32,000 nucleotides of DNA. It comes from Thermodesulfobacteriota bacterium (GTDB taxonomy: Bacteria > Desulfobacterota > WTBG01 > JAGOGO01). The stretch covers positions 945,622-977,621 of the forward strand of contig CP113000.1 in assembly GCA_026625185.1 (NCBI GenBank), in the 5' to 3' direction. The position numbers and the translations under genes are program-made. Shown here one piece after another: positions 8,843 through 29,366 of this stretch. A model generated the notes under the pieces. The model was not told the origin of the DNA and made no database searches. It worked only from the letters and a program-made list of their open reading frames with translations. The stretch's first letter is position 1, and each line of letters opens with the position of its first letter.

Positions 8843-10006
8843 TTAAGACAACGCTGACCAAAAAGGGGACATCTCCCGCAATCGGCCGATAATGGAAGGC
8901 AATTTTTCAATAATGTATGAAATATCTCCTTCCGTGTTATACCGGCTCAGGCTAAACCGGACCGACCCGTGAATCGCATTAAACGGAACACCCATCGCCC
9001 GCAACACATGGGATGGTTCCAAAGAACCGGAGGTGCAGGCTGAGCCTGAGGAAGCGCCGATCCCCTCTTTACTCAAGAGAAGCAGGATAGATTCTCCTTC
9101 CACACTCTCGAAGCTAATATTTAAAGTGTTGGGTAGACGATTTCCTTGATCTCCATTAACCCGAGCCTTGGGAATGCTCTTAAGGAGCTCAATCTCCAGA
9201 CGGTCACGAAGATTACCAATCCGGATTCGTTCTTCCTCCATATAGGATTGAGCCAGCTCGCAAGCCTTCCCGATCCCCACGATATAGGGCACATTCTCAG
9301 TGCCCGCTCTCCGGCCATGCTCCTGATGTCCGCCGATGAGCAGGGGAGAAAACCTCGTTCCTTTTCTGATGTACAATACACCTACACCTTTTGGAGCGTG
9401 GAGCTTGTGCCCGGAAAGAGAAAGAAAATCCACCGGCAGCGTGGAAAGGTTAAGAGGAATTTTACCTCCCGCCTGAACCGCGTCAGTATGAAAAACAATG
9501 CCCCGGTCTTTTACTATCTGCCCAATCTGCTCGATCGGGAAGACCACACCCGTTTCATTATTGGCATACATGATGCTGACAATCGCAGTATCATCACTGA
9601 GGGAGTTTTGTAGTTCATCAAGGTTAAGCCTCCCCAAACGGTCCACAGCAAGCTCAGTAACCTTATATCCGTTTTTTTGCAGATGACGGCAGTAATGCAA
9701 AACCGCATTGTGCTCAACTTTGGTGGTTACAATATGACGTTTTTCCGGATACGAGGCGAGCGTTCCGTGGATGGCGGCATTATCACTTTCCGTGCCGCAA
9801 CTGGTAAACACAATCTCTTCAGGGTCAGCGTTAAGCAGGCTCGCAACCTGCTCTCGGGCATAGATCAAATGCTTTTCTACCTGTGCGCCAAAATGATGCA
9901 TGCTCGACGGGTTTCCGTAGAGGTCCTCAAAAAAAGGCAGCATCGCCTCTTTCACTTCTGGAGCCACCCGGGTGGTAGCATTATTGTCCGCATAAACCTC
10001 CTTCAT
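8843..10006 (-). CDS. nifS: cysteine desulfurase NifS
   Basis: The PLP lysine context (SGHKLHAPKGVG) and the active-site Cys loop (SSGSACTS) are present. The start overlaps the nifU stop by 4 nt. Confidence 0.92.
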   Translation of the reverse strand: MKEVYADNNATTRVAPEVKEAMLPFFEDLYGNPSSMHHFGAQVEKHLIYAREQVASLLNADPEEIVFTSCGTESDNAAIHGTLASYPEKRHIVTTKVEHNAVLHYCRHLQKNGYKVTELAVDRLGRLNLDELQNSLSDDTAIVSIMYANNETGVVFPIEQIGQIVKDRGIVFHTDAVQAGGKIPLNLSTLPVDFLSLSGHKLHAPKGVGVLYIRKGTRFSPLLIGGHQEHGRRAGTENVPYIVGIGKACELAQSYMEEERIRIGNLRDRLEIELLKSIPKARVNGDQGNRLPNTLNISFESVEGESILLLLSKEGIGASSGSACTSGSLEPSHVLRAMGVPFNAIHGSVRFSLSRYNTEGDISYIIEKLPSIIGRLREMSPFWSALS

Positions 10007-10851
10007 GATTTCACCTCCACCACGACAATATCTTCACTCACCAGTTCACGTAACTTCCCCTCCACATATTTTTCCAGGGTGAAACCGGAGCTGGGACACG
10101 AACTGCACATGCCCCGCAGAGCCACAAATACTCGATTGCCGTCCATATCAATAAGGTCAATATCCCCTCCATCAGCCTTTAAAGCAGGCCGGATTTCCCT
10201 TTCCAGGGTTTCTTCCACCAGCTTCATTTTCTGAATGTTACTGAGCCTCTTCTTAGGAGCGGGAACCTCTCTGGGAACTTCCTGCTTTTGCTCCCCCTGC
10301 GCGAGGGCAATTAAAGCCTCAATCTTAGGATGACAGGTCTCACATCCCCCGCCCGCTTTGGTGTAGTTTTTGACTTGCTCAACCGTGGTAAGCCCATTTT
10401 CCCTTACAGCACGGATAATCTCTGTATCAGTAATGCCAAAACACTGGCAGACGATCTCCCCCTCCTCCTTTTTCCCCACATCAACCTTGCGATAATTCGC
10501 AATCGCCGCCTCAAGCGCCTCCCGCCCCATAACCGAACAGTGCATTTTTTCCTGAGGCATTCCATCAAGATAATCGGCAATGTCTCGATTGGTAATTTTT
10601 TCTGCTTCTTCTAAAGTCTTTCCAATGATCATTTCGGTCAAGGCTGAGGCTGAAGCAATCGCGCTTCCACACCCGAAGGTTTGAAATTTAGCATCACTGA
10701 TCATTCCCTTTTCATCCAGTTTGATCATCAGCTTTAGGGCATCGCCGCACGCTAATGACCCCACTTCTCCCACCCCGTCCGGATTTTCAATGATGCCGAC
10801 ATTCCGGGGATTGTAAAAGTGGTCTTTAAGCTTTTCCGAATAATTCCACAT
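10003..10851 (-). CDS. nifU: three-domain NifU Fe-S assembly protein
   Basis: It has an N-terminal IscU-like domain (ACGD, FGCGSAIA, MHC), a central BFD-like [2Fe-2S] domain (CQCFGIT...CETCHP) and a C-terminal NifU domain (CSSCPSS). Confidence 0.92.
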   Translation of the reverse strand: MWNYSEKLKDHFYNPRNVGIIENPDGVGEVGSLACGDALKLMIKLDEKGMISDAKFQTFGCGSAIASASALTEMIIGKTLEEAEKITNRDIADYLDGMPQEKMHCSVMGREALEAAIANYRKVDVGKKEEGEIVCQCFGITDTEIIRAVRENGLTTVEQVKNYTKAGGGCETCHPKIEALIALAQGEQKQEVPREVPAPKKRLSNIQKMKLVEETLEREIRPALKADGGDIDLIDMDGNRVFVALRGMCSSCPSSGFTLEKYVEGKLRELVSEDIVVVEVKS

Positions 10852-11349
10852 AGTAGTGAACCTCCTGTGGATAATAACAAAATTTATTTTAATTATATCA
10901 TAAAGTTGGGTTCGTCAATAAAGAATTACGGAAAACCGACAATATGTGTCTGTTTTTAATAATGAAACCAAAATCCCTACCCTTTACGAAATTGTACTTA
11001 CTAACCGTAATTGTTTTATTTTTTGTTGACTTTTCACCTGTTTAATTTGCCTTATCCACTCTAATTCAATATAAAATCAGAAACGACTTAATCATATATA
11101 GGTTTGAAATTCTTCCCCGCTTCTTCTCATAGTTCGCACGGGGTTTTATTTCTTCCTCTTTTTTCTCCCTTCTTCAGAGATGATGGTCATTGCGTTGTAG
11201 CCCTTCTTAATCAACTCCCTATCGCCATACATTTAATGTATATTATCCATACATGATTTAAATATTAGCCTCCTTTTTCCTCTTTCCGTTTATTAGGTGT
11301 ATTCAATAAAACTTAGATTAATCAATTGGTTATCAAAATTTAGTTGAAC

Positions 11350-11364
11350 TGGCACGGCAAATGC
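11350..11364 (+). promoter_or_regulatory. sigma54-type -24/-12 element (TGGCACGGCAAATGC)
   Basis: The GG-N10-GC spacing is exact and the -24 half matches the TGGCAC consensus. The site is ~345 nt upstream of the TPP-enzyme ATG, so the target is uncertain. Confidence 0.3.
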
Positions 11365-11558
11365 TTTTTTAAGTCGTTGGATGGTTCTGGTTAAAAATAA
11401 TTATCCGAAACTTTGCGGACGAAAGGGGTGAAAGAATGTCAGGGTTAATAAAAATTAAAGTCAAACCAGCAGCCAGTTAATTATACAAGTTTAGAAACTT
11501 TGACCTGCTCTTTCCATAGATTGAGGGGTTTTTTTATTGGCAGGATATCTCATTTTTA

Positions 11559-11707: not shown

Positions 11708-13255
11708 ATGAATGGCGCTCAACTAATCATGAGAACAGCTATTAAGGCTGGTATTGAGGTATGCTTTACCAACTTTGGAACAACCGAAATGCCATTAGCT
11801 CTGGCTTTTGACACGCAACCAGGAGTCAAACCTATATTGGGCTTGTTTGAAGGCGTTTGCACTGGAGCAGCAGATGGTTATGGCAGAATGATGGATAAAC
11901 CTGCTTTGACTCTTTTACATTTGGGTCCTGGGCTCGCTAACGGAGTTGCTAACCTGCATAATGCTAAAAGAGCTAAAACTCCAATAGTGAATCTGATTGG
12001 TGAACATACTAGCCAGCATGTTAATCTGGATGCCCCCCTTTCAATGAACATTGAAGCCCTTGCCAGTACAATATCCGGATGGTACAAAACCAATCAATCT
12101 CCCATGGAACTATCTAAAGATTTGGCTGACGCCATTATAGCCTCTCAATATGGACAAATATCCACCCTTATAATACCTAACGACTATCAACAGGAAGAAG
12201 TTACAAACGGTAAAGTTGCTATTTCTCATTTTCCCTTTGATCCAATCGATGAAAATGTCATTGATTGCGCAGCTCAGCTCATGAGGAACCATCATAAAGT
12301 GGCATTGATTATAGGTGGGAGGGCTTTGCGTAAAAAAGGTTTGCTGGCCGCGGCGCGCATTAAAGAACTGAAGGATTGCGACCTCCTTACTGACTGTTTC
12401 CCAAGCTACATGGAAAGAGGGATGGGTTTCCCTGAAATAATCCGAATCCCCTATTTCCCTGAACCAGCAATTGAACTATTATCTCGCTATGAGGCTGTAG
12501 TGATATCCGGCACTAAAGAGCCTGTAGGGTTTTTCGGTTATAAGGGTATCCGAGGCAAATTGCTCGCGGAAGACCAATCCCGTATAATTATAAATTCCAA
12601 TAAGCAAAATCCCATTGAGGCTCTGGAATGTCTGGCTGACGCCCTGGGCTGCTCTAAAGAAATTTCACCAAGAATAACCGCAGCAAGGCGTTATCCTTCT
12701 GTTGCTCAGGGAGAGCTTACCACCGAAAAAGCTTGCCAAACCCTTGCGGCAGTTCAGCCTGAAGGCGCCATTATTGTGGATGAGGGCATCTCCTCCGCAT
12801 TCCCCTATTACTCTTTAAGCCATGGCCTCTTGCCCCATACTATGATTACCATCGCCGGAGGTTCCATTGGGTACGGTATGCCATGCTCTATAGGAGCGGC
12901 TATAGCTTGTCCTGATAGACCGGTAATTAACTTGCAGGCAGACGGAAGCGCTATGTATACGGTACAGGCATTATGGACGCAGGCTAAGCAAGCTTTAAAC
13001 GTTACTACCTTAATTTGTTCCAACCGTCGTTATAACATTCTGAAAATGGAAATGGAGCGGGCCGGCATTAAATCTATTGGTCCTAATGCTAAGGCACTTA
13101 TTGATATTGAGAATCCACCTGTTAATTGGACCAAAATGGCTGAAGCTATGGGGGTCTCGGCAGTTTCAGTATGCACAGGGGAAGCACTGGCAAAGGAAAT
13201 TCAGGGGGCTTTATCTGGAAAAGGGCCCTATTTAATAGAGATGGTTTTAAAGTAA
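11708..13255 (+). CDS. thiamine-diphosphate-dependent enzyme of the acetolactate synthase / benzoylformate decarboxylase superfamily (stand-alone, no small subunit)
   Basis: The N-terminal Pyr domain carries the catalytic Glu context (GTTEMPL). The C-terminal PP domain has a variant ThDP motif (ADGSAMYT...CSNRRYN). The gene has visibly lower GC than its neighbours. Confidence 0.8.
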   Translation: MNGAQLIMRTAIKAGIEVCFTNFGTTEMPLALAFDTQPGVKPILGLFEGVCTGAADGYGRMMDKPALTLLHLGPGLANGVANLHNAKRAKTPIVNLIGEHTSQHVNLDAPLSMNIEALASTISGWYKTNQSPMELSKDLADAIIASQYGQISTLIIPNDYQQEEVTNGKVAISHFPFDPIDENVIDCAAQLMRNHHKVALIIGGRALRKKGLLAAARIKELKDCDLLTDCFPSYMERGMGFPEIIRIPYFPEPAIELLSRYEAVVISGTKEPVGFFGYKGIRGKLLAEDQSRIIINSNKQNPIEALECLADALGCSKEISPRITAARRYPSVAQGELTTEKACQTLAAVQPEGAIIVDEGISSAFPYYSLSHGLLPHTMITIAGGSIGYGMPCSIGAAIACPDRPVINLQADGSAMYTVQALWTQAKQALNVTTLICSNRRYNILKMEMERAGIKSIGPNAKALIDIENPPVNWTKMAEAMGVSAVSVCTGEALAKEIQGALSGKGPYLIEMVLK

Positions 13256-13656: not shown

Positions 13657-13869
13657 AACTTTGATTGTTCACTATAATGTAGCGCAGACAAGTTCAAACC
13701 TTTCTATGAAATTTGTTGAGTTCTTTGCCCGCGAACTCTCACCTGCGGAAATAGATAAATTAATTGATAAGTTGAAGGAGCCGAAAACTGATAAAGGTAT
13801 CTAAATTTTCCTTCCAACGTGCCAAAAGAAGAAAGTTTACAGAGATCAATCTAACCATTGTTATGCGAT

Positions 13870-14436
13870 ATGACTATAACCAATAATTCAATCGTATCAG
13901 AAAGGAATGTGTTGGTTGCCACCACCATATTTCTGCTCCAGCGGGGTCTCGTCCCTTATCAATTCTCTGTTGCAGCGGGCCAAGGACTCAAACGCACTGA
14001 TATGACTTCTCATCTTCGACAAGTATTTGCTTCTATCGGGCATTCGCCCAATTTTACTGGCAAAGGAGCGGACATTCTTGCCATATCTAAGAATGAGTGG
14101 TGGGCGGTGGAATGTAAAGGTTCGGGTGCAGGAAAAGCTCAGACTCAACGCAATAATTTTGACCGTGCTTTTGCAAGCGTTGTCTTCTATTACGAGGAGA
14201 AATCCCCAAGTCTTTAAGGAAATTATGCAAATGCGACCGTTTTCATAGCCCTTGCACTTCCAGACACCCAAGCCTACCTGAATGAATTAAGAAAAGGAGT
14301 GCGGATGCCTCTCAGAAAGCGTCTTAATCTGTGGGTTTTGCTCTATCAACGTGATAGCAGATTAATTCGGTCTGTAAGTCCAGATCAAGAGATATGGCTT
14401 GACACAAACCAAATCGTTCCACCGGATTGCCGATAA
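13870..14436 (+). pseudogene. PD-(D/E)XK nuclease-like ORF interrupted by an in-frame TAA (14215-14217)
   Basis: The motif GADILAISKNEWWAVECKG gives a D...ExK arrangement. The same frame stays open for 72 more codons after the TAA (GNYANATVFIALALPDTQAYLNELRKG...), and the downstream part has no start codon. Confidence 0.5.
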
Positions 14437-14460
14437 ATCCGTTTTCCGCTAACCTTTGCG

Positions 14461-14560
14461 TTACTAAAAAAAATTCTCTCTCTGTGCCCAGTTCTCACCC
14501 TTTTCCTCATCACAAGAAAGGCGTTTTGCCGGCGAAAGACCTCCGGGTCGTACTCTATTT
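14461..14560 (-). pseudogene. frameshifted 3' remnant of a 4-oxalocrotonate tautomerase paralog
   Basis: About 70 nt are ~80-85% identical by eye to the 3' end of the intact gene at 16028-16100. A 4-nt deletion breaks the frame (...RRQNAFLV / DEEKGENWAQRENFF*). Confidence 0.55.
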
Positions 14561-14568
14561 ATTAATTA

Positions 14569-14596
14569 TTGACAACTTCATTTTGTATAGATTAAT
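14569..14596 (+). promoter_or_regulatory. sigma70-like promoter TTGACA-N16-ATTAAT immediately upstream of prmA
   Basis: The hexamers were read directly. The -10 ends 9 nt before the prmA ATG and no SD is visible, so the mRNA may be leaderless or nearly so. Confidence 0.35.
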
Positions 14597-14605
14597 GATT
14601 TATTC

Positions 14606-15547
14606 ATGACAAAAGAAGAACCGGGAAAATGGCTGAAAATTGAAATAGCGGCCCCCGTAGAATTAATGGACGCAGTGGGAAATTTTCTCACGGAAACCGG
14701 CGCTCAGGGGGTGTTTCAGGAAACGTTAGGCACTCCATCTCAGGAAGAATTTGACGAAGTGCAATTTCGTGACGCGATCAAGGCTTATTTTGCGCACGAT
14801 GCCGCGAGCGAAGAACGAATTGCCGCTATCCAAAAATACCTAGAAAGCTTAAAGGAAATTTTTCCTGATATTCCAGCGCCGGTCTTGAAAACAGAAATCA
14901 TCAGCGATCCGGGCTGGGGAGAAGCGTGGAAAAAATATTTCAAAGCGGTCCGTGTCAGCAGCAATATTATCGTCAAGCCAACCTGGGAAAAATATGCGCC
15001 GTCCGGCCGTGATATTGTCATTGAAATTGACCCGGGCCTGGCCTTCGGGACCGGCCAGCATCCATCTACCAGAATGTGCATTGAAGCGCTCGAAGACATC
15101 ATGATGCACGATGCTTCCGTGCAAAACTGGAAAACGCTCGATGTGGGCTGCGGCACCGGAATTTTGGGCATTATCGCCGCCAGACTTGGCGCGCGCGATG
15201 TCCTCTGTCTGGACAACGATCCAAAGGCTACGGAAATTGCCGCGAAAAACGCCGCTGTTAATCTGGTTTCCGATCGGCTGCGAATTGTTAATCAGGATGC
15301 CCTGGCAATCAATGAACCACGGAATTTAATCATCGCCAACTTAACCTCCAAACTGCTTTTGAAACTGTGCCGGCACTTAACGCAATTGCTTGTGGCGGGT
15401 GGCTATATGATTATTTCCGGCATCATGGAAAAGGATAGCGGGGATATTGAAGCGAGCTTTTCTGTCGCTCCGTTAATACAACACCGGGTGATTAAAGAAA
15501 AAGAGTGGGTATGCTACCTTCTCAGGAAGGAAGCACCCGCCGTTTAG
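14606..15547 (+). CDS. prmA: ribosomal protein L11 methyltransferase
   Basis: PrmA architecture with the SAM motif LDVGCGTGILGI and the conserved GLAFGTGQHPST. Confidence 0.9.
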   Translation: MTKEEPGKWLKIEIAAPVELMDAVGNFLTETGAQGVFQETLGTPSQEEFDEVQFRDAIKAYFAHDAASEERIAAIQKYLESLKEIFPDIPAPVLKTEIISDPGWGEAWKKYFKAVRVSSNIIVKPTWEKYAPSGRDIVIEIDPGLAFGTGQHPSTRMCIEALEDIMMHDASVQNWKTLDVGCGTGILGIIAARLGARDVLCLDNDPKATEIAAKNAAVNLVSDRLRIVNQDALAINEPRNLIIANLTSKLLLKLCRHLTQLLVAGGYMIISGIMEKDSGDIEASFSVAPLIQHRVIKEKEWVCYLLRKEAPAV

Positions 15548-16630: not shown

Positions 16631-16703
16631 TTTGGGCCTTCTTTAAAAAGCAATTTCATAATGATCGTGATGTTATTTAATCTCTAATAATCAACACGTT
16701 GCG

Positions 16704-18004: not shown

Positions 18005-18958
18005 ATGCCAACCATTGATGATGAATTGATAAAACAAGTATGTGAAACCGGCTATCGATCGCATCAGCATTTTCGGGAAGAACTTCCGAAAATAGTCGAA
18101 GATATTGTGGAGACCTGTAATAGTGGTGAATGTTTTGAACAAATGTATTCTGAGGTTATCCCATCCCGTGAGGCGATCATTGAAATCATCCAACGGCTCC
18201 GAGAAATCTTGTTTCCCGGTTATTTTAATAAGGAAAAAACCGACCCGGTTAACCTTAAATATCAAATGGGGCAGTCCGTAAGTGTTTTGTTTGAAATGCT
18301 TGCCGAACAAATTTCCCGAAGTTTTCAGCACGATTGCCTTCGCTTTCATAAGCCATGCATTAAATGTAGCGAGCAAGGCGAGCATGAGGCAGTGATTTTT
18401 TTAAAATCAATCCCAAAAATCCGGCGATTATTAGCAACCGATGTGCGCGCTGCTTATGACGGTGACCCAGCCGCTCAAAGCTTTGATGAGATTATTTTTA
18501 GTTATCCGGGTATGTTCGCCATTATGGTTTATCGCATTGCCCATGAACTTTATGAACAAAAAATACCCCTCATTCCTCGTATCATGACTGAATACGCTCA
18601 CAGTGTCACGGGTATTGACATCCATCCTGGCGCCCGGATTGGAGAAAGCTTTTTCATTGACCACGGGACTGGAGTGGTTATTGGGGAAACCACTGAGATT
18701 GGGAAAAACGTCCGGCTTTATCAGGGAGTCACTTTGGGGGCGCTATCGTTACCCAAAGATGCAGGAGAGCAACTGAGGGGGAAAAAACGACATCCCACCA
18801 TTGAGGATGATGTAATTATTTACGCGGAAGCGACTATTCTTGGCGAGAAAGCGGTAATCGGAACGCGTTCGGTGATCGGAGGCAATGTTTGGATCACTGA
18901 TCCCGTGCCGCCGGACACCAGAGTGCTGTTTGAAACACCTAATTTAATCTATAAATAA
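18005..18958 (+). CDS. cysE: serine O-acetyltransferase (long N-terminal type)
   Basis: The SAT core is DIHPGARIGESFFIDHGTGVVIGETTEIG with hexapeptide repeats. A GGAGG RBS is present, and the gene is divergent from cysK. Confidence 0.88.
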   Translation: MPTIDDELIKQVCETGYRSHQHFREELPKIVEDIVETCNSGECFEQMYSEVIPSREAIIEIIQRLREILFPGYFNKEKTDPVNLKYQMGQSVSVLFEMLAEQISRSFQHDCLRFHKPCIKCSEQGEHEAVIFLKSIPKIRRLLATDVRAAYDGDPAAQSFDEIIFSYPGMFAIMVYRIAHELYEQKIPLIPRIMTEYAHSVTGIDIHPGARIGESFFIDHGTGVVIGETTEIGKNVRLYQGVTLGALSLPKDAGEQLRGKKRHPTIEDDVIIYAEATILGEKAVIGTRSVIGGNVWITDPVPPDTRVLFETPNLIYK

Positions 18959-19471
18959 AAATATGGTTATCTTCTTTAAAAAATTTGACAATTATAAAGT
19001 TGAACTTTAAAATTTCCACATGCATGTTTCCCGCCTCTAATCATCTGCGTTTAAATCCCTTGCGGGCAAAGATGCGGCAGAAACCGGTCTGCTTGTCTGC
19101 CGCGTCAAGAAGTCAACCCCTCTTCCTTCCAATAATCTCGCTTTGCCCTGGCAGGAATTTCCCTCCTGGCTCGTGGAAAAGCTGTAACTCCCACCGGAAA
19201 AGCTTTGGACAAAACTGAAGGTGTGAAGGCGGCTAAAAAGATAACCGTTGATTTTTTGTTGTTTTTTCTTTTGGTTAAGATTAAAAAAGATAAAAAATCA
19301 TCAACCCCAAAAAGATAAGGGACGGAAAGGAACCGGGAGTCTTTGATGGGAAGAATTGTAACTACTGATGAGAAGATAACATAAGGCCAAATCGCCGATT
19401 AAAAAGGCGAGAGGCCTTTTTTCCCAGTAGGGGCACGGGGTTCGGAGCCCACTTGACGAGTTTTCAACTGG

Positions 19472-19615
19472 CTTATGCAGTCTGTATAAGACCGAAGGTA
19501 TCAAAGCAACAAAATGGTTTAACAATATGATATTATGTGATATTTATAACTTCTTAGGAAGATACGGAAAAGTCTTATACAGAAAGCAACGGTCTGTGTT
19601 TCCTGACTTATACGG
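19472..19615. promoter_or_regulatory. cluster of four CTTATRCRG 9-mers (three direct, one inverted)
   Basis: The copies are CTTATGCAG at 19472-19480, its inverted partner CTGTATAAG at 19482-19490, CTTATACAG at 19574-19582 and CTTATACGG at 19607-19615. The cluster lies just upstream of the GTTAGGC core at 19629. Confidence 0.5.
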
Positions 19616-19635
19616 ACTATATAATCTATGTTAGG
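19517..19635 (+). other. possible attC/attI-like boundary site (GTTTAAC-AATAT ... GTTAGGC)
   Basis: The R''-like GTTTAAC (RYYYAAC) and R'-like GTTAGGC (GTTRRRY) can pair fully if G-T wobbles are allowed, and they are 119 nt apart. Internal L-box pairing is weak and AT-rich. Confidence 0.3.
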
Positions 19636-19726
19636 CCAAAAGCGCTGATGCTGTCTAACGGCATTGAATTTCGTGAGGAATTTATTCATGATCTACTTTT
19701 CATCCACGCTGAATTGAGTCGAAACC

Positions 19727-20353
19727 ATGCAAATCGCTGTTACTATAGCTCTCACAGCCACCTACCTTGGCCTCTCGCTGACGCTCGGCGGCGTGCATTC
19801 AAACAATGGCCCTTGGTGGTTCTTCTTGCCTTGCATTGTGTCAATCTGCGCCTTCGTTGTTGCCAAAATGATCATGGCCAAACTTCCGCTGCCCTGGGTC
19901 AATGAACAGGGCTATAGCTCTCCACCTCGCCGTGTCCACCTTTCTTGGAGAGCCACTGTCCGGCTTCCCGCTTATGCGCCATTCCTGCTTATTCTGTGGC
20001 ATTTTCTATCGATCCTGCGCATGCACTTTGACATCGACTGGGTGTTGTGTTGCGTGATCATGCTCGTCTTGGGGATGATGACCATAGTTGCTCTCAGACG
20101 CTGGCGTGAAATCCGACTCCTTCGAAGTGGTGAAGTGGGGATGGCGTTTATCAATAGTCGAGAGAACACTGCTGAGTGGCAAGACGACCGAATATACTAT
20201 CATTTCAAGACTGCCAGAGGGGCAGATGTCTCGGGTCGGGCATTCTATGTTGGATATGATGTACTCGAAGGCTCCATCATCCCAGTGTTCTACGACCCCA
20301 AGAATCCTTCAGATCACGTGGTCGCCTGCGCCTCCTGGTTCGAGGCCGATTGA
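19727..20353 (+). CDS. four-TM membrane protein with C-terminal DUF3592-like domain
   Basis: Four hydrophobic helices are followed by GEVGMAFINSRENTAEW...YYHFKTARGADVSG...GSIIPVFYDPKNPSDHVV, the typical DUF3592 pattern. The gene is GC-rich relative to its flanks. Confidence 0.65.
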   Translation: MQIAVTIALTATYLGLSLTLGGVHSNNGPWWFFLPCIVSICAFVVAKMIMAKLPLPWVNEQGYSSPPRRVHLSWRATVRLPAYAPFLLILWHFLSILRMHFDIDWVLCCVIMLVLGMMTIVALRRWREIRLLRSGEVGMAFINSRENTAEWQDDRIYYHFKTARGADVSGRAFYVGYDVLEGSIIPVFYDPKNPSDHVVACASWFEAD

Positions 20354-20372
20354 CGGTTTGCATGGAAACGCG

Positions 20373-20434
20373 GCCCAACCCGTCAATGCAGCGGATCGTC
20401 CTAAAACCGGGCCTCCTGCTGTTTTTTGTTGGGC
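20373..20434 (+). other. attC-like recombination site 1
   Basis: GCCCAAC-CCGTC-AATGCAGCGG...CCTGCTG-TTTTTT-GTTGGGC. R'' and R' match RYYYAAC and GTTRRRY and are perfectly complementary (7/7). The inner L-like arms pair with bulged bases. The site is 62 nt long and starts 20 nt after the preceding stop codon. Confidence 0.55.
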
Positions 20435-20492
20435 AAGTTCAAAATTGAAAAATGAGCATAATCAAATAACCATTTTTGCAAGGAGCTGAATC

Positions 20493-21977
20493 ATGAACAA
20501 TACAGTGCTTATTGTTATTGTTTGTGCTCCGGTTGTTCTAGCGGCTCTCTTTTTTCTCTATAGGTTTCTATTACAACTTACCACGAAGCCCATTCTGGAA
20601 ATAAGTCTTACTCCATCTGATAGCTTAAGATGGCCCAAAAAGAAAAAGATCGCTGAGTTGGCTGATGCTTTTCAACGGCATGGTTTTGAACTGGCCGGAC
20701 ATTATGATTGTCCGGAAATTCCTGTTGTCAAAATATCAGGATTTGTGAAACCTTCCGAACAAATCATCGGAGTGGTTTATTATCATTCTATTGCCGGAAT
20801 ATGGACAGACCTCTGTGTCGAATACAATGATGGAGAAAGCCTTACAGTTTCCAACGCGCCTGCGGGGCAGGAAATGGATCACATGCCGGGATCGGAAAAA
20901 ATTTATATAAAGGGAAGTTCTGTGGAGGAACTTATCGCGAAAGTTCTATCCGATAGGAAAAACAAAGAGAGGAAAAAAATCACCAAGGAAGAATTTTCTT
21001 CCAATTTCGAAGAAGCGTATAAGAAAGAAATGAAATGGCGCATGGAAAGGGGCGGGCCGACGGCGCTGGAAGTAAAAAAAGTTGCCGATGAAATGGGGGT
21101 TCCTCTTGACAGCGGAAAGATGCTGAATAAAACTCAGCCATTACAGAAGATATGGATGAAGGAGAAGATCAAGCCGAGAAAGGTTAGAAGAGAAGTGATT
21201 GATGCTGAACTGCCGGGAGAGTTTCAAAGGTCGGATGTATTTCGTCAGAAGTTGGAACAAAAAAGCGGGCCCATGCCTCAGCAAATGAATATACCGGCAG
21301 CGCCCGTGTATATTGTGCTTATTGCGGCAATAATCTATTGGCTATATTTTGGCTTTCAATACAATAAAGTCCATACGGTTCCTCTAAACGCAGTAGTTAT
21401 TTTTTTAGCAGTCTTTCTAATTTTCTTCATTACTTTGATGTGGATTAACATGCATCATCAAGCAGCGAAAATCTGTCCCTTTTTAAAACGCATTGCCGAT
21501 CAAAGACCGGGAGCCTTTTTGTTTATAAGCGGGACATTCCCAACGCTCTTCTATGCCAGAGAAGCGTGGCTGGGAAAAGTTGTTTTCGAGCAGGGCGGTG
21601 AGCATCGGGATGCATGTACACGTCTGGAAGCGATAACAAAGCATTCCGGAGGATGGCTGTCTATTAGTCAAAAGAATATAATCAGCACAATTTTTGGCCG
21701 GTCGGATAAGAATAATATTGCATTGCCGGATAGCGATTTTGGCAGAAAGTTCATAATGTCGGGCTCGGATGAAGTACTTGCTGAAGAACTACTTAAATCC
21801 AACTTTACAGGAACAATGATGCGTTTGGATGGCTTTAAAAAACCGAGCGTGGAAATTGACGGCAAATCGGTAACCGTGGAAATAAAACAAAACTTTTTTA
21901 GCACGCGCAGGGAAAAGGAACTAAAGCAATTTCTAGATGCAGCGGAAAACATTATTGATACGGTTGTGAAAAAGTAA
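20493..21977 (+). CDS. hypothetical three-TM protein (494 aa)
   Basis: An AAGGAG RBS precedes the ATG. The protein has an N-terminal TM, a Lys/Glu-rich linker and two central TMs. The C-terminal segment (LPDSDFGRKFIMSGSDEVLAEELLKSNF...) is reminiscent of DUF3137-type tails. No catalytic motif was recognised. Confidence 0.7.
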   Translation: MNNTVLIVIVCAPVVLAALFFLYRFLLQLTTKPILEISLTPSDSLRWPKKKKIAELADAFQRHGFELAGHYDCPEIPVVKISGFVKPSEQIIGVVYYHSIAGIWTDLCVEYNDGESLTVSNAPAGQEMDHMPGSEKIYIKGSSVEELIAKVLSDRKNKERKKITKEEFSSNFEEAYKKEMKWRMERGGPTALEVKKVADEMGVPLDSGKMLNKTQPLQKIWMKEKIKPRKVRREVIDAELPGEFQRSDVFRQKLEQKSGPMPQQMNIPAAPVYIVLIAAIIYWLYFGFQYNKVHTVPLNAVVIFLAVFLIFFITLMWINMHHQAAKICPFLKRIADQRPGAFLFISGTFPTLFYAREAWLGKVVFEQGGEHRDACTRLEAITKHSGGWLSISQKNIISTIFGRSDKNNIALPDSDFGRKFIMSGSDEVLAEELLKSNFTGTMMRLDGFKKPSVEIDGKSVTVEIKQNFFSTRREKELKQFLDAAENIIDTVVKK

Positions 21978-22474
21978 TGGGAACAATGCGTGAATGGCGT
22001 TTGGATATTGAAAGGTGGCCGGGCCCTAACAGACAGAAGAGGAAGGGGTTGCGGGACATTTTCAAGGAAAGTCCTAACGGGAGATATCTATCGGTGCTTT
22101 ATTCATGCAGCGAGATTGATATATATAAAGAGGTCGGCCATTTTGCTCTTTTCGAAGAACCGAAGGATTCACCACGGCTTTTGGTGCGTCCCCGGGGCCT
22201 TACCTGCCTTGTTACCTACGATTCCCAAAAAGACATTCAATGGATTGAGAATCGGTTCTGTGTGGTTACTTCTTACAGCCTCAGACCGAGTTTTTCTTCA
22301 TCCGGCCAACTCAAATCGTTTTACGGTGCAATGATTTTTGATGTTAAAGATCGAAAGGCAGCATATGATCCGTGCTCTTCTGCAGGCAAAATTGTTTCTG
22401 CCTTTCCTGATAAACTTGACTGGAAAAGCTGGAGGCGTTTATCATTGTGGCCGAGGGTATGGTACAAGCAATAG
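21977..22474 (+). CDS. hypothetical protein (165 aa), translationally coupled to the upstream gene
   Basis: The start overlaps the upstream stop (TAATG). No recognisable motif was found. Confidence 0.55.
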   Translation: MGTMREWRLDIERWPGPNRQKRKGLRDIFKESPNGRYLSVLYSCSEIDIYKEVGHFALFEEPKDSPRLLVRPRGLTCLVTYDSQKDIQWIENRFCVVTSYSLRPSFSSSGQLKSFYGAMIFDVKDRKAAYDPCSSAGKIVSAFPDKLDWKSWRRLSLWPRVWYKQ

Positions 22475-22614
22475 TAGGGACTTAGGAAAGCCCTTTATAT
22501 ATTTATATTTGAATCATACCCTCTAATAAATGTTCTCATTAAAGATGCTTTTTTTGAGCTTAAAAGCCATATTTTTTGGGGGAAAAGTCAGGTTAAGAAT
22601 CAGAAGATAAGAGT

Positions 22615-22682
22615 GCCCAACAATTTAATCCACCAGACCGCAAGCAGCGCATTGCTTACGGCTGGTGATCAACACGTTAGCT
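22615..22682 (+). other. attC-like recombination site 2
   Basis: GCCCAAC-AATTT-AATCCACCAG-[ACCGCAAGCA gcgcat TGCTTACGG]-CTGGTGAT-CAACAC-GTTAGCT. The layout of R box, 5-6 nt spacer, L box with one extrahelical C and a terminal hairpin mirrors canonical attC sites. It is followed directly by GGAGG-N6-ATG of the next ORF. Confidence 0.6.
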
Positions 22683-22694
22683 GGAGGTAGGAAT

Positions 22695-23414
22695 ATGCCC
22701 AGAAGATCAAGACCACCATCTACAAAGCGAAGCGAACATTGGCTTCGCGTGATGGTCAATGATTATCCGAAATACCTGAATGACTGCATTGCAAAGGCGT
22801 TCGGATGGGACTCAACGTGTATCGAATGGCGGTCACCCCTCCGAGACGACGATTATGCTGAGTATTACGATCAAGAGTTCCTGGAACGACTTGGTGTAAA
22901 CGATCTGCGGATGCCGTTGCACGAGTTCTGGCCAAAAAGTGGACCGCGCTGGGATGGCCTTGCCCGCGCAAGAGACGGAAAACTGATACTCATTGAAGCG
23001 AAGGCACATATTGAGGAAGCGGTTGATTATCGAAGCAAAGCAGCAGCAAATGCGCTTGCCCGGATAGAGAAAAGACTTGATGAGGCCAAAGCGGCATTCC
23101 GAGCGAATCCGGATGCACCTTGGCATAGCCCACTTTACCAAATGGCAAACCGATTAGCTCACCTGTACTTCTTGGCTGAAATCAACAAGAAGGACGCTTA
23201 TTTGGTCTTTGTTAATTTTGCCAATGCAGCCGACGTTGAAATTCCGGTTGCTCGGGAAGAATGGAAAGGTGCCACACGTCTTGCCCACAAGTTCCTGGGG
23301 CTGAAGGATAGCAGGCTCTCAAGACGAGTTACGTCGATCATTATTGATCTGAAAGAAATTATCGGCCAACAATCGGCTGGAGGCGACGCAAGAAACCGCG
23401 CGCCTCAGCTGTGA
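22695..23414 (+). CDS. PD-(D/E)XK nuclease-like hypothetical protein
   Basis: PRWDGLARARDGKLILIEAKAH gives a D...ExK core. I chose the ATG at 22695 with a GGAGG RBS over the GTG at 22665, which lies inside the attC-like site. The gene is GC-rich relative to the preceding block. Confidence 0.65.
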   Translation: MPRRSRPPSTKRSEHWLRVMVNDYPKYLNDCIAKAFGWDSTCIEWRSPLRDDDYAEYYDQEFLERLGVNDLRMPLHEFWPKSGPRWDGLARARDGKLILIEAKAHIEEAVDYRSKAAANALARIEKRLDEAKAAFRANPDAPWHSPLYQMANRLAHLYFLAEINKKDAYLVFVNFANAADVEIPVAREEWKGATRLAHKFLGLKDSRLSRRVTSIIIDLKEIIGQQSAGGDARNRAPQL

Positions 23415-23450
23415 CGTCATGCCGCTTGATAAGATGGCAACACGTTCGGC
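23364..23450 (+). other. attC-like site 3 (degenerate; overlaps the 3' end of the preceding ORF)
   Basis: GGCCAAC-AATCG-GCTGGAGGCG...CGCCTCAGC forms a stem with one extrahelical G. The R' is ambiguous: either GTCATGC at 23416 or CAACAC-GTTCGGC at 23438-23450. The CAACAC spacer is identical to that of site 2. Confidence 0.35.
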
Positions 23451-23548
23451 ATCTCATTCCACGTCTTTCCCAGCAAAACCCGGCCATTAGCCTTCTTGCT
23501 CCGTTTTATTCCGTCCGCGCCCCATCATCCCCACTATTTCAACAAAGT

Positions 23549-25372
23549 TTACACCTTGTGAAAAAAATTGTAAATATTCTCCGCGTCTTTTGCGGTAATT
23601 GACGGGGCCTGCGAAATTTCTTCCTTTTCGGCATGCTGAATCTTTTTTATGCTGCCAAAATAAATAAGAAGATTTTTTTTCTTCTTGGGACCAATACCGG
23701 GGATGCTATCAAGCGGAGAAGCAGTCTGCTTTTTTGCTCTCAGTTTTCGGTGGAAGGTAATGGCGAAACGATGCGCTTCATCCCGAATCCGCTGGAGAAG
23801 ATGGAGCGCTGAGCTGTGTTTGGAAAGGATAAGCGGATCTTTGCGGCCCGGAAGAAAAACTTTTTCCGGCCCTTTGGTAAAATCCTGAAGCTTGCCCTTG
23901 GCAAGCCCGATGGTGTCAATAGTAATTCCCAATTCCTTCATCACTTGACCGGCAACCTGGAGTTGTCCCTTTCCTCCGTCAACGATGAGAAGATCAGGAA
24001 GGTCTTGCTCTTCCGGGCCTCTGGTAAGGCGGCGTTTAATGACTTCATACATCATTCCATAGTCATCGGCTTGATCCACGGTTTTTATTTTGTAGTGCCG
24101 GTATTTCTGCTTGAGCGGCTCGCCCTCTTCAAACCTGACCATGGAACCCACTGCTTCTTTCCCAAAAAGGTTGGAAATGTCAAAACACTCAATAATTCTG
24201 GGTTCACGCTGAAGGCGGAGACTTTCTTTAATTTTTTTCATTGCTCGGTTAATTTTCTCGCTCTGGGCTTCGCGGTTTTCCAGCATAAGCTTGGCATTGT
24301 CAAACGCCATGGTAAGCAGATTTTTTCGATCCCCCTGGTGGGGAAAAATAATTTTTATTTTTTTCCCCTTGCGCTCCGAAAAGTATTCTTCAATAAGGTT
24401 TTGATTTTCAAGCCGCAGAGGGATAATCACCTCGTCCGGAATATATTTCCCTTCTCCGTAAAATTGGGTGAGAAAGGAGGAAATAACCTCTTCATCCTCC
24501 AACTCAACCTTACGAAAAGAAAATGACTGATTGCCCACCATCCGGCCCTGGCGGATAAAAAGAATAAAAATCTCGAAAAGAATACCCTTGCGAAAATAAG
24601 AAATAACGTCCTGATCAATGAATCGGGTGGAAACGATTTTTTGTTTTTCTAAGGTTTTCTCAATCGCTTTAATCTCATCCCTGATGAGCGCGGCTCTTTC
24701 AAAATTAAGATTCTTAGACTCTTCGTTCATTTCCGCAATCAGTTGAGTGATCAGATCCCGGTCCTGACCGCGGAGAAAGAGGAGGACTTTTTTTACAATT
24801 TTGTTGTATTCCTCCTGGTCAACCTTATAGCAACAAGGAGCTAAGCATCTTTTGAGCTGGAAGTTGATGCACGGGCGAATCCGGTTTTTAAAGATACGCT
24901 GGGAGCACTTCCGAATAGGAAAAAGCCTATGAATGATTTGGATTGTCTCCCGCACCGCATTGGCCGAGGCATAGGGACCAAAATAGAGAGAATTATCTTT
25001 TTCCACCCTTCTGACAAAAATAAGGCGGGGATAGTCTTCCTTAATCGTAAACTTTAAATAAAGAAAGTGCTTATCGTCCTTAAGATTAACATTGTAGCGG
25101 GGCTTATGTTTTTTGATTAAGTTGCTCTCAAGGATAAGCGCTTCCTTTTCCGTGGCGGTGATCAGGTAATCCAAGTCAGCGACTTTAGAAACCAGCACCT
25201 GGGTTTTTATGGGTTGATCAGCGCCTGCTTGAAAATATGACCTTACCCGGGAGCGGAGACTTATTGCCTTTCCCACATAAAGAACAGTGCCTGCCCGGTC
25301 CTTCATGAGATAAACACCCGGCTGGGCGGGAAGAGAAGCTAATTTGTCTTCCAAGTGAGAGAAAGTTTCCAT
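23549..25372 (-). CDS. uvrC: excinuclease ABC subunit C
   Basis: It has a GIY-YIG N-terminus (PGVYLMKD...LYVGKA), a UvrBC-interaction region and a C-terminal (HhH)2. I prefer the ATG at 25372 over the TTG at 25390. Confidence 0.92.
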   Translation of the reverse strand: METFSHLEDKLASLPAQPGVYLMKDRAGTVLYVGKAISLRSRVRSYFQAGADQPIKTQVLVSKVADLDYLITATEKEALILESNLIKKHKPRYNVNLKDDKHFLYLKFTIKEDYPRLIFVRRVEKDNSLYFGPYASANAVRETIQIIHRLFPIRKCSQRIFKNRIRPCINFQLKRCLAPCCYKVDQEEYNKIVKKVLLFLRGQDRDLITQLIAEMNEESKNLNFERAALIRDEIKAIEKTLEKQKIVSTRFIDQDVISYFRKGILFEIFILFIRQGRMVGNQSFSFRKVELEDEEVISSFLTQFYGEGKYIPDEVIIPLRLENQNLIEEYFSERKGKKIKIIFPHQGDRKNLLTMAFDNAKLMLENREAQSEKINRAMKKIKESLRLQREPRIIECFDISNLFGKEAVGSMVRFEEGEPLKQKYRHYKIKTVDQADDYGMMYEVIKRRLTRGPEEQDLPDLLIVDGGKGQLQVAGQVMKELGITIDTIGLAKGKLQDFTKGPEKVFLPGRKDPLILSKHSSALHLLQRIRDEAHRFAITFHRKLRAKKQTASPLDSIPGIGPKKKKNLLIYFGSIKKIQHAEKEEISQAPSITAKDAENIYNFFHKV

Positions 25373-26808: not shown

Positions 26809-26905
26809 GGAAGTGGTGAGGTCCTGGTGGGCCTCCTGGACTTCAAATCCAGTGAGAGGCGTGAGCAACGTCTCTGGTGGGTTCGATTCCCATGCACTTC
26901 CGCCA
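26809..26905 (+). tRNA. selC: tRNA-Sec (anticodon TCA)
   Basis: GGAAGTGG...CTGGA-CTTCAAA-TCCAG gives the anticodon arm. There is a 6-bp D stem with a 4-nt loop (AGGTCC TGGT GGGCCT), a long variable arm (TGAGAGGCGTGAGCAACGTCTCTG), a T arm (GTGGG TTCGATT CCCAT), and an encoded discriminator G plus CCA. Confidence 0.9.

Positions 26906-29291: not shown

Positions 29292-29366
<75 letters not shown>

Follow-up and report, generated by a model that had tools for sequence, protein, structure and literature searches.

A probable decayed integron with three cassettes and an attI-like region between cysE and uvrC in a Thermodesulfobacteriota genome

We have analyzed a 32-kb stretch of a Thermodesulfobacteriota genome (GenBank assembly GCA_026625185.1, contig CP113000.1, positions 945,622 to 977,621; hereafter the window) in which an array of three gene blocks fills the gap between a convergent gene pair, a hexapeptide acyltransferase gene and uvrC. 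An earlier note made from the raw sequence, which called the acyltransferase gene cysE, had proposed that the blocks are integron cassettes. We find that each block ends in an attC site and that the array is preceded by what appear to be the last codons of an integron integrase gene (intI) and an attI-like region. The locus is very probably a chromosomal integron from which the integrase gene has been deleted, leaving attI and three cassettes. The first and third cassettes are associated with attC sites elsewhere, and the locus is variable.

Three attC sites end the gene blocks

Rfam has no family for attC, and its matches, at both the gathering threshold and E < 10, were at chance level; for this reason we built attC covariance models of our own. 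Model R1 was made from eight class 1 plasmid attC sites (aadB, aadA2, aadA5, aac(6')-Ib, blaVIM-2, aac(6')-29a, arr-3 and dfrA5), using the textbook pairing of R box, spacer and L box and none of the window sequence, and was run over the whole window on both strands with filters off. Its validation set comprised 93 intI-bearing loci from plasmids, IMG/VR and metagenomes; here it recovered 103 attC sites, 101 of which lie on the strand opposite intI, as expected. Model R2 was then built from these 103 sites. In a control of 1.18 Mb, consisting of 80 uvrC loci of other genomes, R2 gave only five other matches at E < 10, and these fall in three loci that themselves resemble cassette arrays.

The three best R2 matches in the window are all on the + strand, each ending a gene block: site 2 at 33.2 bits (E 1e-6), site 3 at 29.4 bits (E 1.1e-5) and site 1 at 21.6 bits (E 1.5e-3), with the next-best match at 12.3 bits. 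Since the control yielded five matches in 1.18 Mb, three co-oriented matches within 3 kb are far beyond chance. Their scores of 21-33 bits lie at the low end of the range of real attC sites, 22-70 bits. R1 gives its top score to site 2 (23.0 bits, E 2.4e-4), followed by site 1 (21.1 bits, E 9e-4), and puts site 3 in fourth place (13.4 bits, E 0.2, at 23365-23422). The attC motifs are where the earlier note had put them, R1 returning its exact ends for sites 1 and 2, and the significant attC model matches on which it had staked its claim are present. The starts of the sites are 2242 and 749 bp apart.

Between its R boxes (Table 1), site 2 consists of a spacer, L'' ATC[C]ACCAG[A]CCG (extrahelical bases in brackets), a loop, L' CTGGTGAT and the spacer CAACAC. 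Its bottom strand folds at -14.2 kcal/mol (z -3.6), a value that none of 200 shuffles equals. In this fold a paired R box is followed by a spacer without pairing and then by an L box, and the '' arm has two bulged bases, a G (top-strand C, 22631) and, five pairs on, a T (top-strand A, 22637). In site 3, L'' GCT[G]GAGGCG is followed by L' CGCCTCAGC and the spacer TGTGAC; the model alignment contains one bulge (bottom-strand C), and the fold alone is weak (z -0.7 to -1.5). The bottom-strand hairpin with extrahelical bases that the earlier note had proposed as a check is therefore canonical at site 2 and partial at site 3, and site 1, whose fold is also weak, does not form it. Sites 1 and 2 contain the crossover triplet GTT, as does the core of the attI-like region described below, and site 3 reads GTC at this point; in another metagenome (L189, L190) the homologue of site 3, at 24.3 bits, keeps the GTT. 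A run of six T residues follows site 1 and no T run follows sites 2 and 3; none of the three sites was called a terminator, which speaks against the plain terminators that the earlier note had considered.

All three sites are attC sites. Judged from its sequence and predicted fold, site 2 looks fully competent, and the structure of site 1 is weak. Because site 3 no longer has the conserved GTT (bottom-strand AAC), the last cassette is probably not mobile. Outside the array, on the - strand at 13849-13866, GCATAACAATG abuts GTTAGAT to give an R''/R' pair without a stem (14.5 bits with R1, 9.6 bits with R2), most likely by chance.

A putative intI remnant and an attI-like region precede the array

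Upstream of the first cassette, before the attI-like region and in the same orientation as the cassettes, is a putative remnant of the 3' end of intI. The motif GVRSPLD that it encodes occurs 32 times in intI loci and is absent from a six-frame background of 2.36 M aa. In a blastn comparison, positions 19437-19493 match the intI 3' end of the IMG/VR contig IMGVR_UViG_3300010051_000518 (L107) with 75% identity over 57 nt (E 8e-4). This contig carries, in order and on one strand, an internally deleted intI (a 91-aa open reading frame, ORF), ~170 nt of spacer DNA, TTGTTAG, a gene for a 656-aa protein and an attC site of 39.5 bits.

The similarity to L107 extends beyond the gene. Positions 19428-19640 of the window are collinear with the L107 segment, with 132 of 223 aligned columns identical, and in both loci CAGTCYGTATAAGACC lies just past the intI stop and CTTATACRGACT..ATAA..TGTTAG just before the first cassette, the distance between the two motifs being 121 nt in the window and 123 nt in L107. 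The global alignment scores 24; shuffles have a mean of 1.6 (sd 1.2, maximum 10; z ~18), and none of 322 other segments of the window scores above 7. The motif pair occurs only in L107 and the host species among ~3 Mb of fetched DNA, and a pattern search of IMG/VR gave no contig except that of L107 itself. Together these comparisons indicate that 19431-19636 is homologous to an intI 3' end plus attI.

The integrase-binding sites of attI form inverted and direct repeats, and we know of no general model for attI sites. The attI-like region contains the motif CAGTCTGTATAAGAC at 19478-19492, with inverted and direct copies GTCTTATACAGA at 19573-19584 and GACTTATACGGACT at 19606-19619 (repeats D6, I4 and I5), and ends in GTTAGGC, with the crossover G/TT at 19630/19631. 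The repeats and the collinearity with L107 support its assignment as an attI-like site. The earlier note had seen GTTAGGC ahead of the first block, one base too far to the left (19629 rather than 19630-19636); it is best read as the attI core, because the putative intI remnant and attI-like region survive directly upstream. A fourth attC site ('site 0', from GTTTAAC at 19517 to GTTAGGC) was considered and rejected: neither model matches it, its fold has a z of +0.5, and attI explains the region better.

No integrase was found in the 32-kb window by tblastn with three IntI proteins (best E 0.28), and it contains no tyrosine recombinase ORF. Where a complete integron has a functional intI with the IntI-specific additional domain, this locus has ~11 C-terminal codons left. 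Tyrosine recombinase fragments near homologues of the cassette 1 protein (L199-L201) and in L014 proved to be generic phage-type integrases and not IntI.

Table 1. Features of the array and its surroundings (positions in the window)
Feature	Position	Strand	Content or basis
Hexapeptide acyltransferase gene (cysE of the earlier note), left flank	18005-18958	+	Pfam Hexapep
Variable DNA left of the putative intI remnant	18959-19430	none	No similarity to L007 or any fetched locus
Putative intI 3'-end remnant	19431-19463	+	~11 codons, GHGVRSPLDEF, stop codon before; motif, blastn and alignment
attI-like region	19464-19636	+	Repeats and collinearity with L107
Cassette 1	19631-20428	+	798 bp, GC ~52%; attI core to attC site 1
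attC site 1	20373-20434	+	R'' GCCCAAC 20373, R' GTTGGGC 20428-20434; irregular L box
Cassette 2	20429-22676	+	2248 bp, GC 42%; bounded by attC site 1 and attC site 2
attC site 2	22615-22682	+	R'' GCCCAAC 22615, R' GTTAGCT 22676-22682
Cassette 3	22677-23416	+	740 bp, GC 50%; ORF 22695-23414, 239 aa
attC site 3	23364-23422	+	R'' GGCCAAC 23364, degenerate R' GTCATGC 23416-23422
uvrC, right flank, convergent with the array	23549-25372	-	Pfam GIY-YIG, UVR and UvrC RNase H domains

Boundaries and genes of the three cassettes

Integron integrases cross over at G/TT, and the last six bases of each R' therefore belong to the next cassette. With the boundaries drawn in this way, R'' and R' of each cassette can be paired as they would be in the excised circle. 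For cassette 2 the circle form is an exact match, R' (G 22676 plus TTGGGC 20429-20434) complementing R'' GCCCAAC at 7 of 7 positions, as against only 4 pairs plus one G-T in the array form. Cassette 3 forms 5 pairs plus one G-T as a circle and 3 in the array, and cassette 1 pairs at 6/7 positions in the circle form, as read directly from the sequence. ORFs were found in all three gene blocks of the earlier note, and the succession of higher, lower and higher GC content that it had noticed holds for the cassettes (51.8%, 42.2% and 50.3%, in a window of 44.4%). NCBIfam, PADLOC and a sequence search of the PDB returned nothing for the four cassette proteins.

The clearest boundaries are those of cassette 3. 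Its protein is 83% identical in amino acid sequence to the homologue in L189 and L190, and nucleotide homology to these loci starts exactly at the GTTAGC core and fades a few bases past the core of the next attC, with unrelated DNA on both flanks. Both loci keep the attC and have more attC sites downstream. The boundaries of cassette 3 are at core sites at both ends. The last ~17 codons of its ORF lie within attC site 3, and among the 1,474 homologues of the protein many have variable GQ[PQ]SA... tails of the kind that an ORF running into an attC would encode. In dozens of homologues (P0013-P0069) with 65-72% identity, the C-terminal tail is near-identical (NGNGQPSAGAYALPRAAQP), which suggests a single widespread cassette type of ORF plus attC. 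In the AlphaFold2 (AF2) model of the protein (pLDDT 89.8) the tail, residues 228-239, is disordered, and D87 and E101-A-K103 are invariant in this large, uncharacterized family. Foldseek gave no significant match (best E 0.036); the top weak matches are all PD-(D/E)xK nucleases (NucS, SduA, Can2 and McrC), and on the basis of this model the protein is possibly PD-(D/E)xK nuclease-like.

Cassette 1 encodes (19727-20353) a 208-aa multi-pass membrane protein with a DUF3592-type C-terminal domain, an assignment resting on a weak Pfam match and on homologues that carry PF12158. A homologue in L202 is 80% identical, and an attC lies 19 nt past its stop within an array of further attC sites, with GCCCAAC at the same place as in the window; the attC association and R'' are all that is conserved between the two loci. 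A Nitrospirae metagenome-assembled genome (MAG; L198, JACRLO010000032.1, 8001-11986) encodes homologues of two cassette proteins, that of cassette 1 (76%) and the 494-aa protein of cassette 2 (48%), separated by 1 kb within a set of co-oriented genes that includes a HigB/HigA-type pair and in which attC was not detected. The set may be a decayed array, or it may hint at a functional link between the two membrane proteins. A 176-aa neighbor in L198 was considered and is not a homologue of the 165-aa protein of cassette 2.

Cassette 2 contains two ORFs overlapping at TAATG, one for a 494-aa membrane protein that is DUF3137-like (20493-21977) and one for a 165-aa protein (21977-22474). The pair is kept in L205, L206 and L208, with 70% amino acid identity for the small protein, and in these loci has a stable neighborhood that includes PsiE, PriA and an ADP-forming acyl-CoA synthetase. 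Outside its ORFs, cassette 2 has no homology to the loci of these distant homologues, and comparison does not confirm its boundaries. No attC was detected near the homologues with R2 in L203-L206, a search that did not extend to L208. The 2,248-bp two-gene cassette is real and is unusually large, a size on which the earlier note had remarked, and its gene pair is conserved in other loci. In several loci (L205 198-7994, L206 94-7973, L203 487-5846 and L208 442-7128) the pair ends a conserved, co-oriented cluster of uncharacterized genes (~220, 325 and 183 aa, and others), and a variable slot just upstream holds a methyltransferase, an amidase or a 147-aa protein.

The array occupies a variable gap

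The array is common to four independent assemblies of the species (JARDUI010000189.1 from MAG GCA_029216075.1, JGI 3300019861, Logan SRR21915714 and JGI 3300040734). In the closest available relative (L007; UvrC 89% identical, flanking genes ~88% identical at the DNA level, and the left-flank acyltransferase 96% identical) cysE adjoins uvrC with 1.9 kb of unrelated DNA between them, comprising a glycosyltransferase-like gene on the other strand and fragments of an IS3-type transposase. Nucleotide homology to the window ends at 18961 and picks up again at 23556. In relatives more distant than L007, cysE is not adjacent to uvrC. Because the L007 gap is unrelated and the more distant relatives do not have this adjacency, the whole 4.6 kb between cysE and uvrC is accessory DNA, and an arrangement of cysE, array and uvrC conserved in distant relatives, which would have told against the earlier note, is not seen.

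Left of the putative intI remnant, the variable DNA has no IntI similarity by tblastn. Just after the cysE stop it contains a near-consensus promoter-like site (TTGACA-17-TAAAAT, 18985-19013, + strand; match 11/12) and, ~400 nt further on, a terminator-like hairpin with a T run (AAAAAGGCGAGAGGCCTTTTTT, ~19404-19426). Between 18985 and 19426 we found no convincing ORF, Rfam match or homologue, Rfam giving only a chance-level match to a terminator-type stem. An ORF of the PALP family (cysK-like; Pfam PALP) adjoins the acyltransferase gene.

Proposed history and alternatives

We propose that an integron lodged in the gap between the convergent cysE and uvrC and that its integrase would have captured three circular cassettes at the attI core (G/TTAGGC); with capture at this point, the newest cassette would be the one nearest attI. 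A later deletion would then have taken intI except for its last ~11 codons. The bottom strand of an attC, when single-stranded, folds into the hairpin of R box, spacer and L box with bulged bases that is the target of integron integrases. Because there is no resident integrase, the array is probably frozen, and excision or reshuffling of its cassettes would need IntI in trans, encoded at another place in the genome or brought in by a new element. We infer from sequence the order of these events, the present-day immobility of the array, its expression and the functions of the cassette genes.

Several observations weigh against this account. Site 1 is the weakest of the three (~21 bits), folds no better than shuffles (z -1.1) and has no canonical bulge, and site 3 has an R' of GTCATGC, with GTC in place of GTT. 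The covariance models are home-made rather than those of IntegronFinder, making the E-values rough. The left boundary of cassette 1 comes from the attI core alone, homology to L202 starting ~13 nt before the ATG, and homologues of the cassette 2 genes, as well as some of those of cassettes 1 and 3, occur where no attC is detectable. The putative intI remnant is only ~11 codons long, and the attI comparison depends on one locus, L107, whose own intI is internally deleted. One alternative is that the hairpins are terminators or intergenic repeats unrelated to integrons and the RYYYAAC/GTTRRRY boxes a coincidence: the T6 run and poor fold of site 1 fit that idea, and we estimate that chance alone would give one RYYYAAC with its complement a few tenths of a time per window. 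It is nevertheless extremely improbable, given that three same-strand matches occur in 3 kb against at most ~4 of similar score per 1.18 Mb, that no T run follows site 2 or site 3 and 0/3 sites are called terminators, that the break points of cassette 3 are at core sites and that R'' of site 2 is complemented exactly by R' of site 1.

Two further explanations accept the cassettes and dispute how they came to be here. The locus could be a plain cluster of attC sites lacking an integrase (CALIN) that never had a resident one, formed when an integrase encoded elsewhere inserted the cassettes, successively or as a block, at a secondary (attG-type) genomic site or when a rearrangement split them from an integron. 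No integrase is present in 32 kb, the terminal junction G/TCATGC is non-canonical, as expected at a non-att site, secondary-site or attG insertion is documented (bioRxiv 10.1101/2022.09.11.507474; PMC4889954), and most CALINs have no nearby intI pseudogene (PMC4889954). We regard this origin as decidedly unlikely, however, since the DNA before the first cassette is collinear with the intI end and attI of L107 and encodes an IntI C-terminal motif, neither of which is expected at a random target. Alternatively, a degraded integron may have landed between cysE and uvrC as cargo of a larger mobile element, for example a prophage or island remnant. That would account for the absence from L007 of all of 18959-23555, including 470 bp left of the remnant, and it is in keeping with the classification of L107, the sole locus with the same attI type, as an IMG/VR 'viral' contig and with the transposase fragments in the L007 gap. 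Yet phage, transposase and recombinase genes and terminal repeats were not found in the inserted segment, which is only 4.6 kb long and almost wholly attI plus cassettes, and we think a cargo origin quite unlikely. A resident integron that lost its integrase gene is the reading that we prefer.

Relation to known integrons

By its published definition, a CALIN has two or more attC sites on the same strand, spaced by less than 4 kb, and lacks an integron integrase in the vicinity (PMC4889954). The locus resembles one in its three attC sites on one strand, spaced 2.2 and 0.7 kb apart, with no adjacent integrase and none within >8 kb on either side, in cassettes of unknown function unrelated to resistance genes, and in being small; in 83% of CALINs the attC sites number fewer than six (PMC4889954). 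Unlike most CALINs it keeps an attI-like region and a putative intI remnant. A detectable intI pseudogene lies near only ~5% of CALINs, by a criterion of >50% profile coverage (PMC4889954) for which the remnant here is far too short. The earlier note's description of a CALIN-like array without an integrase is accordingly apt as to the definition and has to be amended as to the upstream DNA, where ~11 intI codons and the attI-like region persist. The evidence supports a decayed same-direction integron with attI kept, which the rules of IntegronFinder would label a CALIN. Since CALINs outnumber complete integrons in genomes (PMC4889954) and integrons have already been reported in Desulfobacterota (PMC9668308), this is an element of a well-known kind.

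Same-direction integrons, in which intI points toward attI, are known from Treponema denticola and its relatives (PMC3607928), and in archaeal integrons attI is reported to lie immediately downstream of intI (PMC9668308). The frame of the putative remnant and the attC sites are likewise all on the + strand here, as the order in L107 is on one strand. The locus differs from the Treponema type in that intI is almost wholly deleted and in its Thermodesulfobacteriota MAG host; the putative remnant resembles IntI1-like C-termini (GVRSPLD). The locus shares with L107 the order and spacing of intI end, CAGTCYGTATAAGACC, ~120 nt, CTTATACRGACT..ATAA..TGTTAG, first cassette and attC, whereas L107 is GC-rich, carries a different cassette (that of the 656-aa protein) and does not share the central part of attI. 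We consider it rather unlikely that the locus and L107 represent an undescribed lineage of same-direction integrons and, as a separate proposal, that cassette 2 is a snapshot of cassette genesis, a fragment of a chromosomal operon that gained an attC. Marks of such a lineage may be an IntI1-like C-terminus and an attI with the inverted/direct repeat GTCYGTATAAGAC / CTTATACRGAC. The comparisons behind the two proposals, one on the attI type common to the locus and L107 and one on the two-gene cassette, are thin.

Site 2 is built like class 1 attC sites (aadB, aadA2, aac(6')-Ib, blaVIM-2 and others), with a 7-nt R'', an AATTy spacer, 3 bp, a bulged C, a stem with a second bulge (top-strand A), 3 bp, a 6-nt spacer and GTTAG; it departs from them in an R''-side spacer of 6 rather than 5 nt and in belonging to an array without resistance genes.

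The locus shows that reading R'', L'', L' and R' in raw sequence can correctly find cassette arrays in uncultured Thermodesulfobacteriota, where integrons are little studied, and it illustrates one route by which a CALIN can form, deletion of the integrase with attI kept. It also adds three defined cassettes, including the cassette 3 family of >1,400 homologues, many with attC-encoded tails. The two-gene cassette and its counterparts in which no attC was detected could bear on the origin of cassettes, the evidence for this being circumstantial.

Further observations

Compared with the window, L007 has three further insertions of 1.4-2.5 kb, with junctions near 16681/16704, 26013/26022 and 26664/26659; small accessory inserts between conserved genes are therefore common in the genus. 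The L007 homologue of cysE (13725-14673) was matched by tblastn in two overlapping pieces, which may reflect a frameshift or an assembly error. Downstream of the locus, the window contains a tRNA-Sec gene (26809-26901, 75.6 bits) and another tRNA gene (29292-29366).

Other uvrC genes also have attC matches nearby. In a Candidatus Scalindua MAG (L020, SHMT01000022.1, 11938-17118), ~12 small co-oriented ORFs lie directly downstream of uvrC and on its strand, with co-oriented attC matches of 21.2, 18.1, 16.0 and 15.1 bits at 12737, 14136, 15620 and 16368; this is a probable further cassette array next to uvrC. Strong matches of 27.1 and 34.8 bits flank uvrC in a Syntrophaceae MAG (L032, MNZP01000007.1, 5422-5496 and 18281-18343). 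In a Nitrospirae MAG (L036, 7209-7262), a weak match of 21.7 bits follows a DUF2442 ORF by a BrnT/BrnA-like toxin-antitoxin pair downstream of uvrC. Cassettes may land repeatedly at the 3' side of uvrC, or attC sites may just be abundant in these phyla. Among the IMG/VR contigs, L108 (IMGVR_UViG_2837289379_000002, 10001-11416) has two IntI C-terminal fragments on the same strand with a strong attC of 39.9 bits between them and looks like a rearranged or duplicated integron end.

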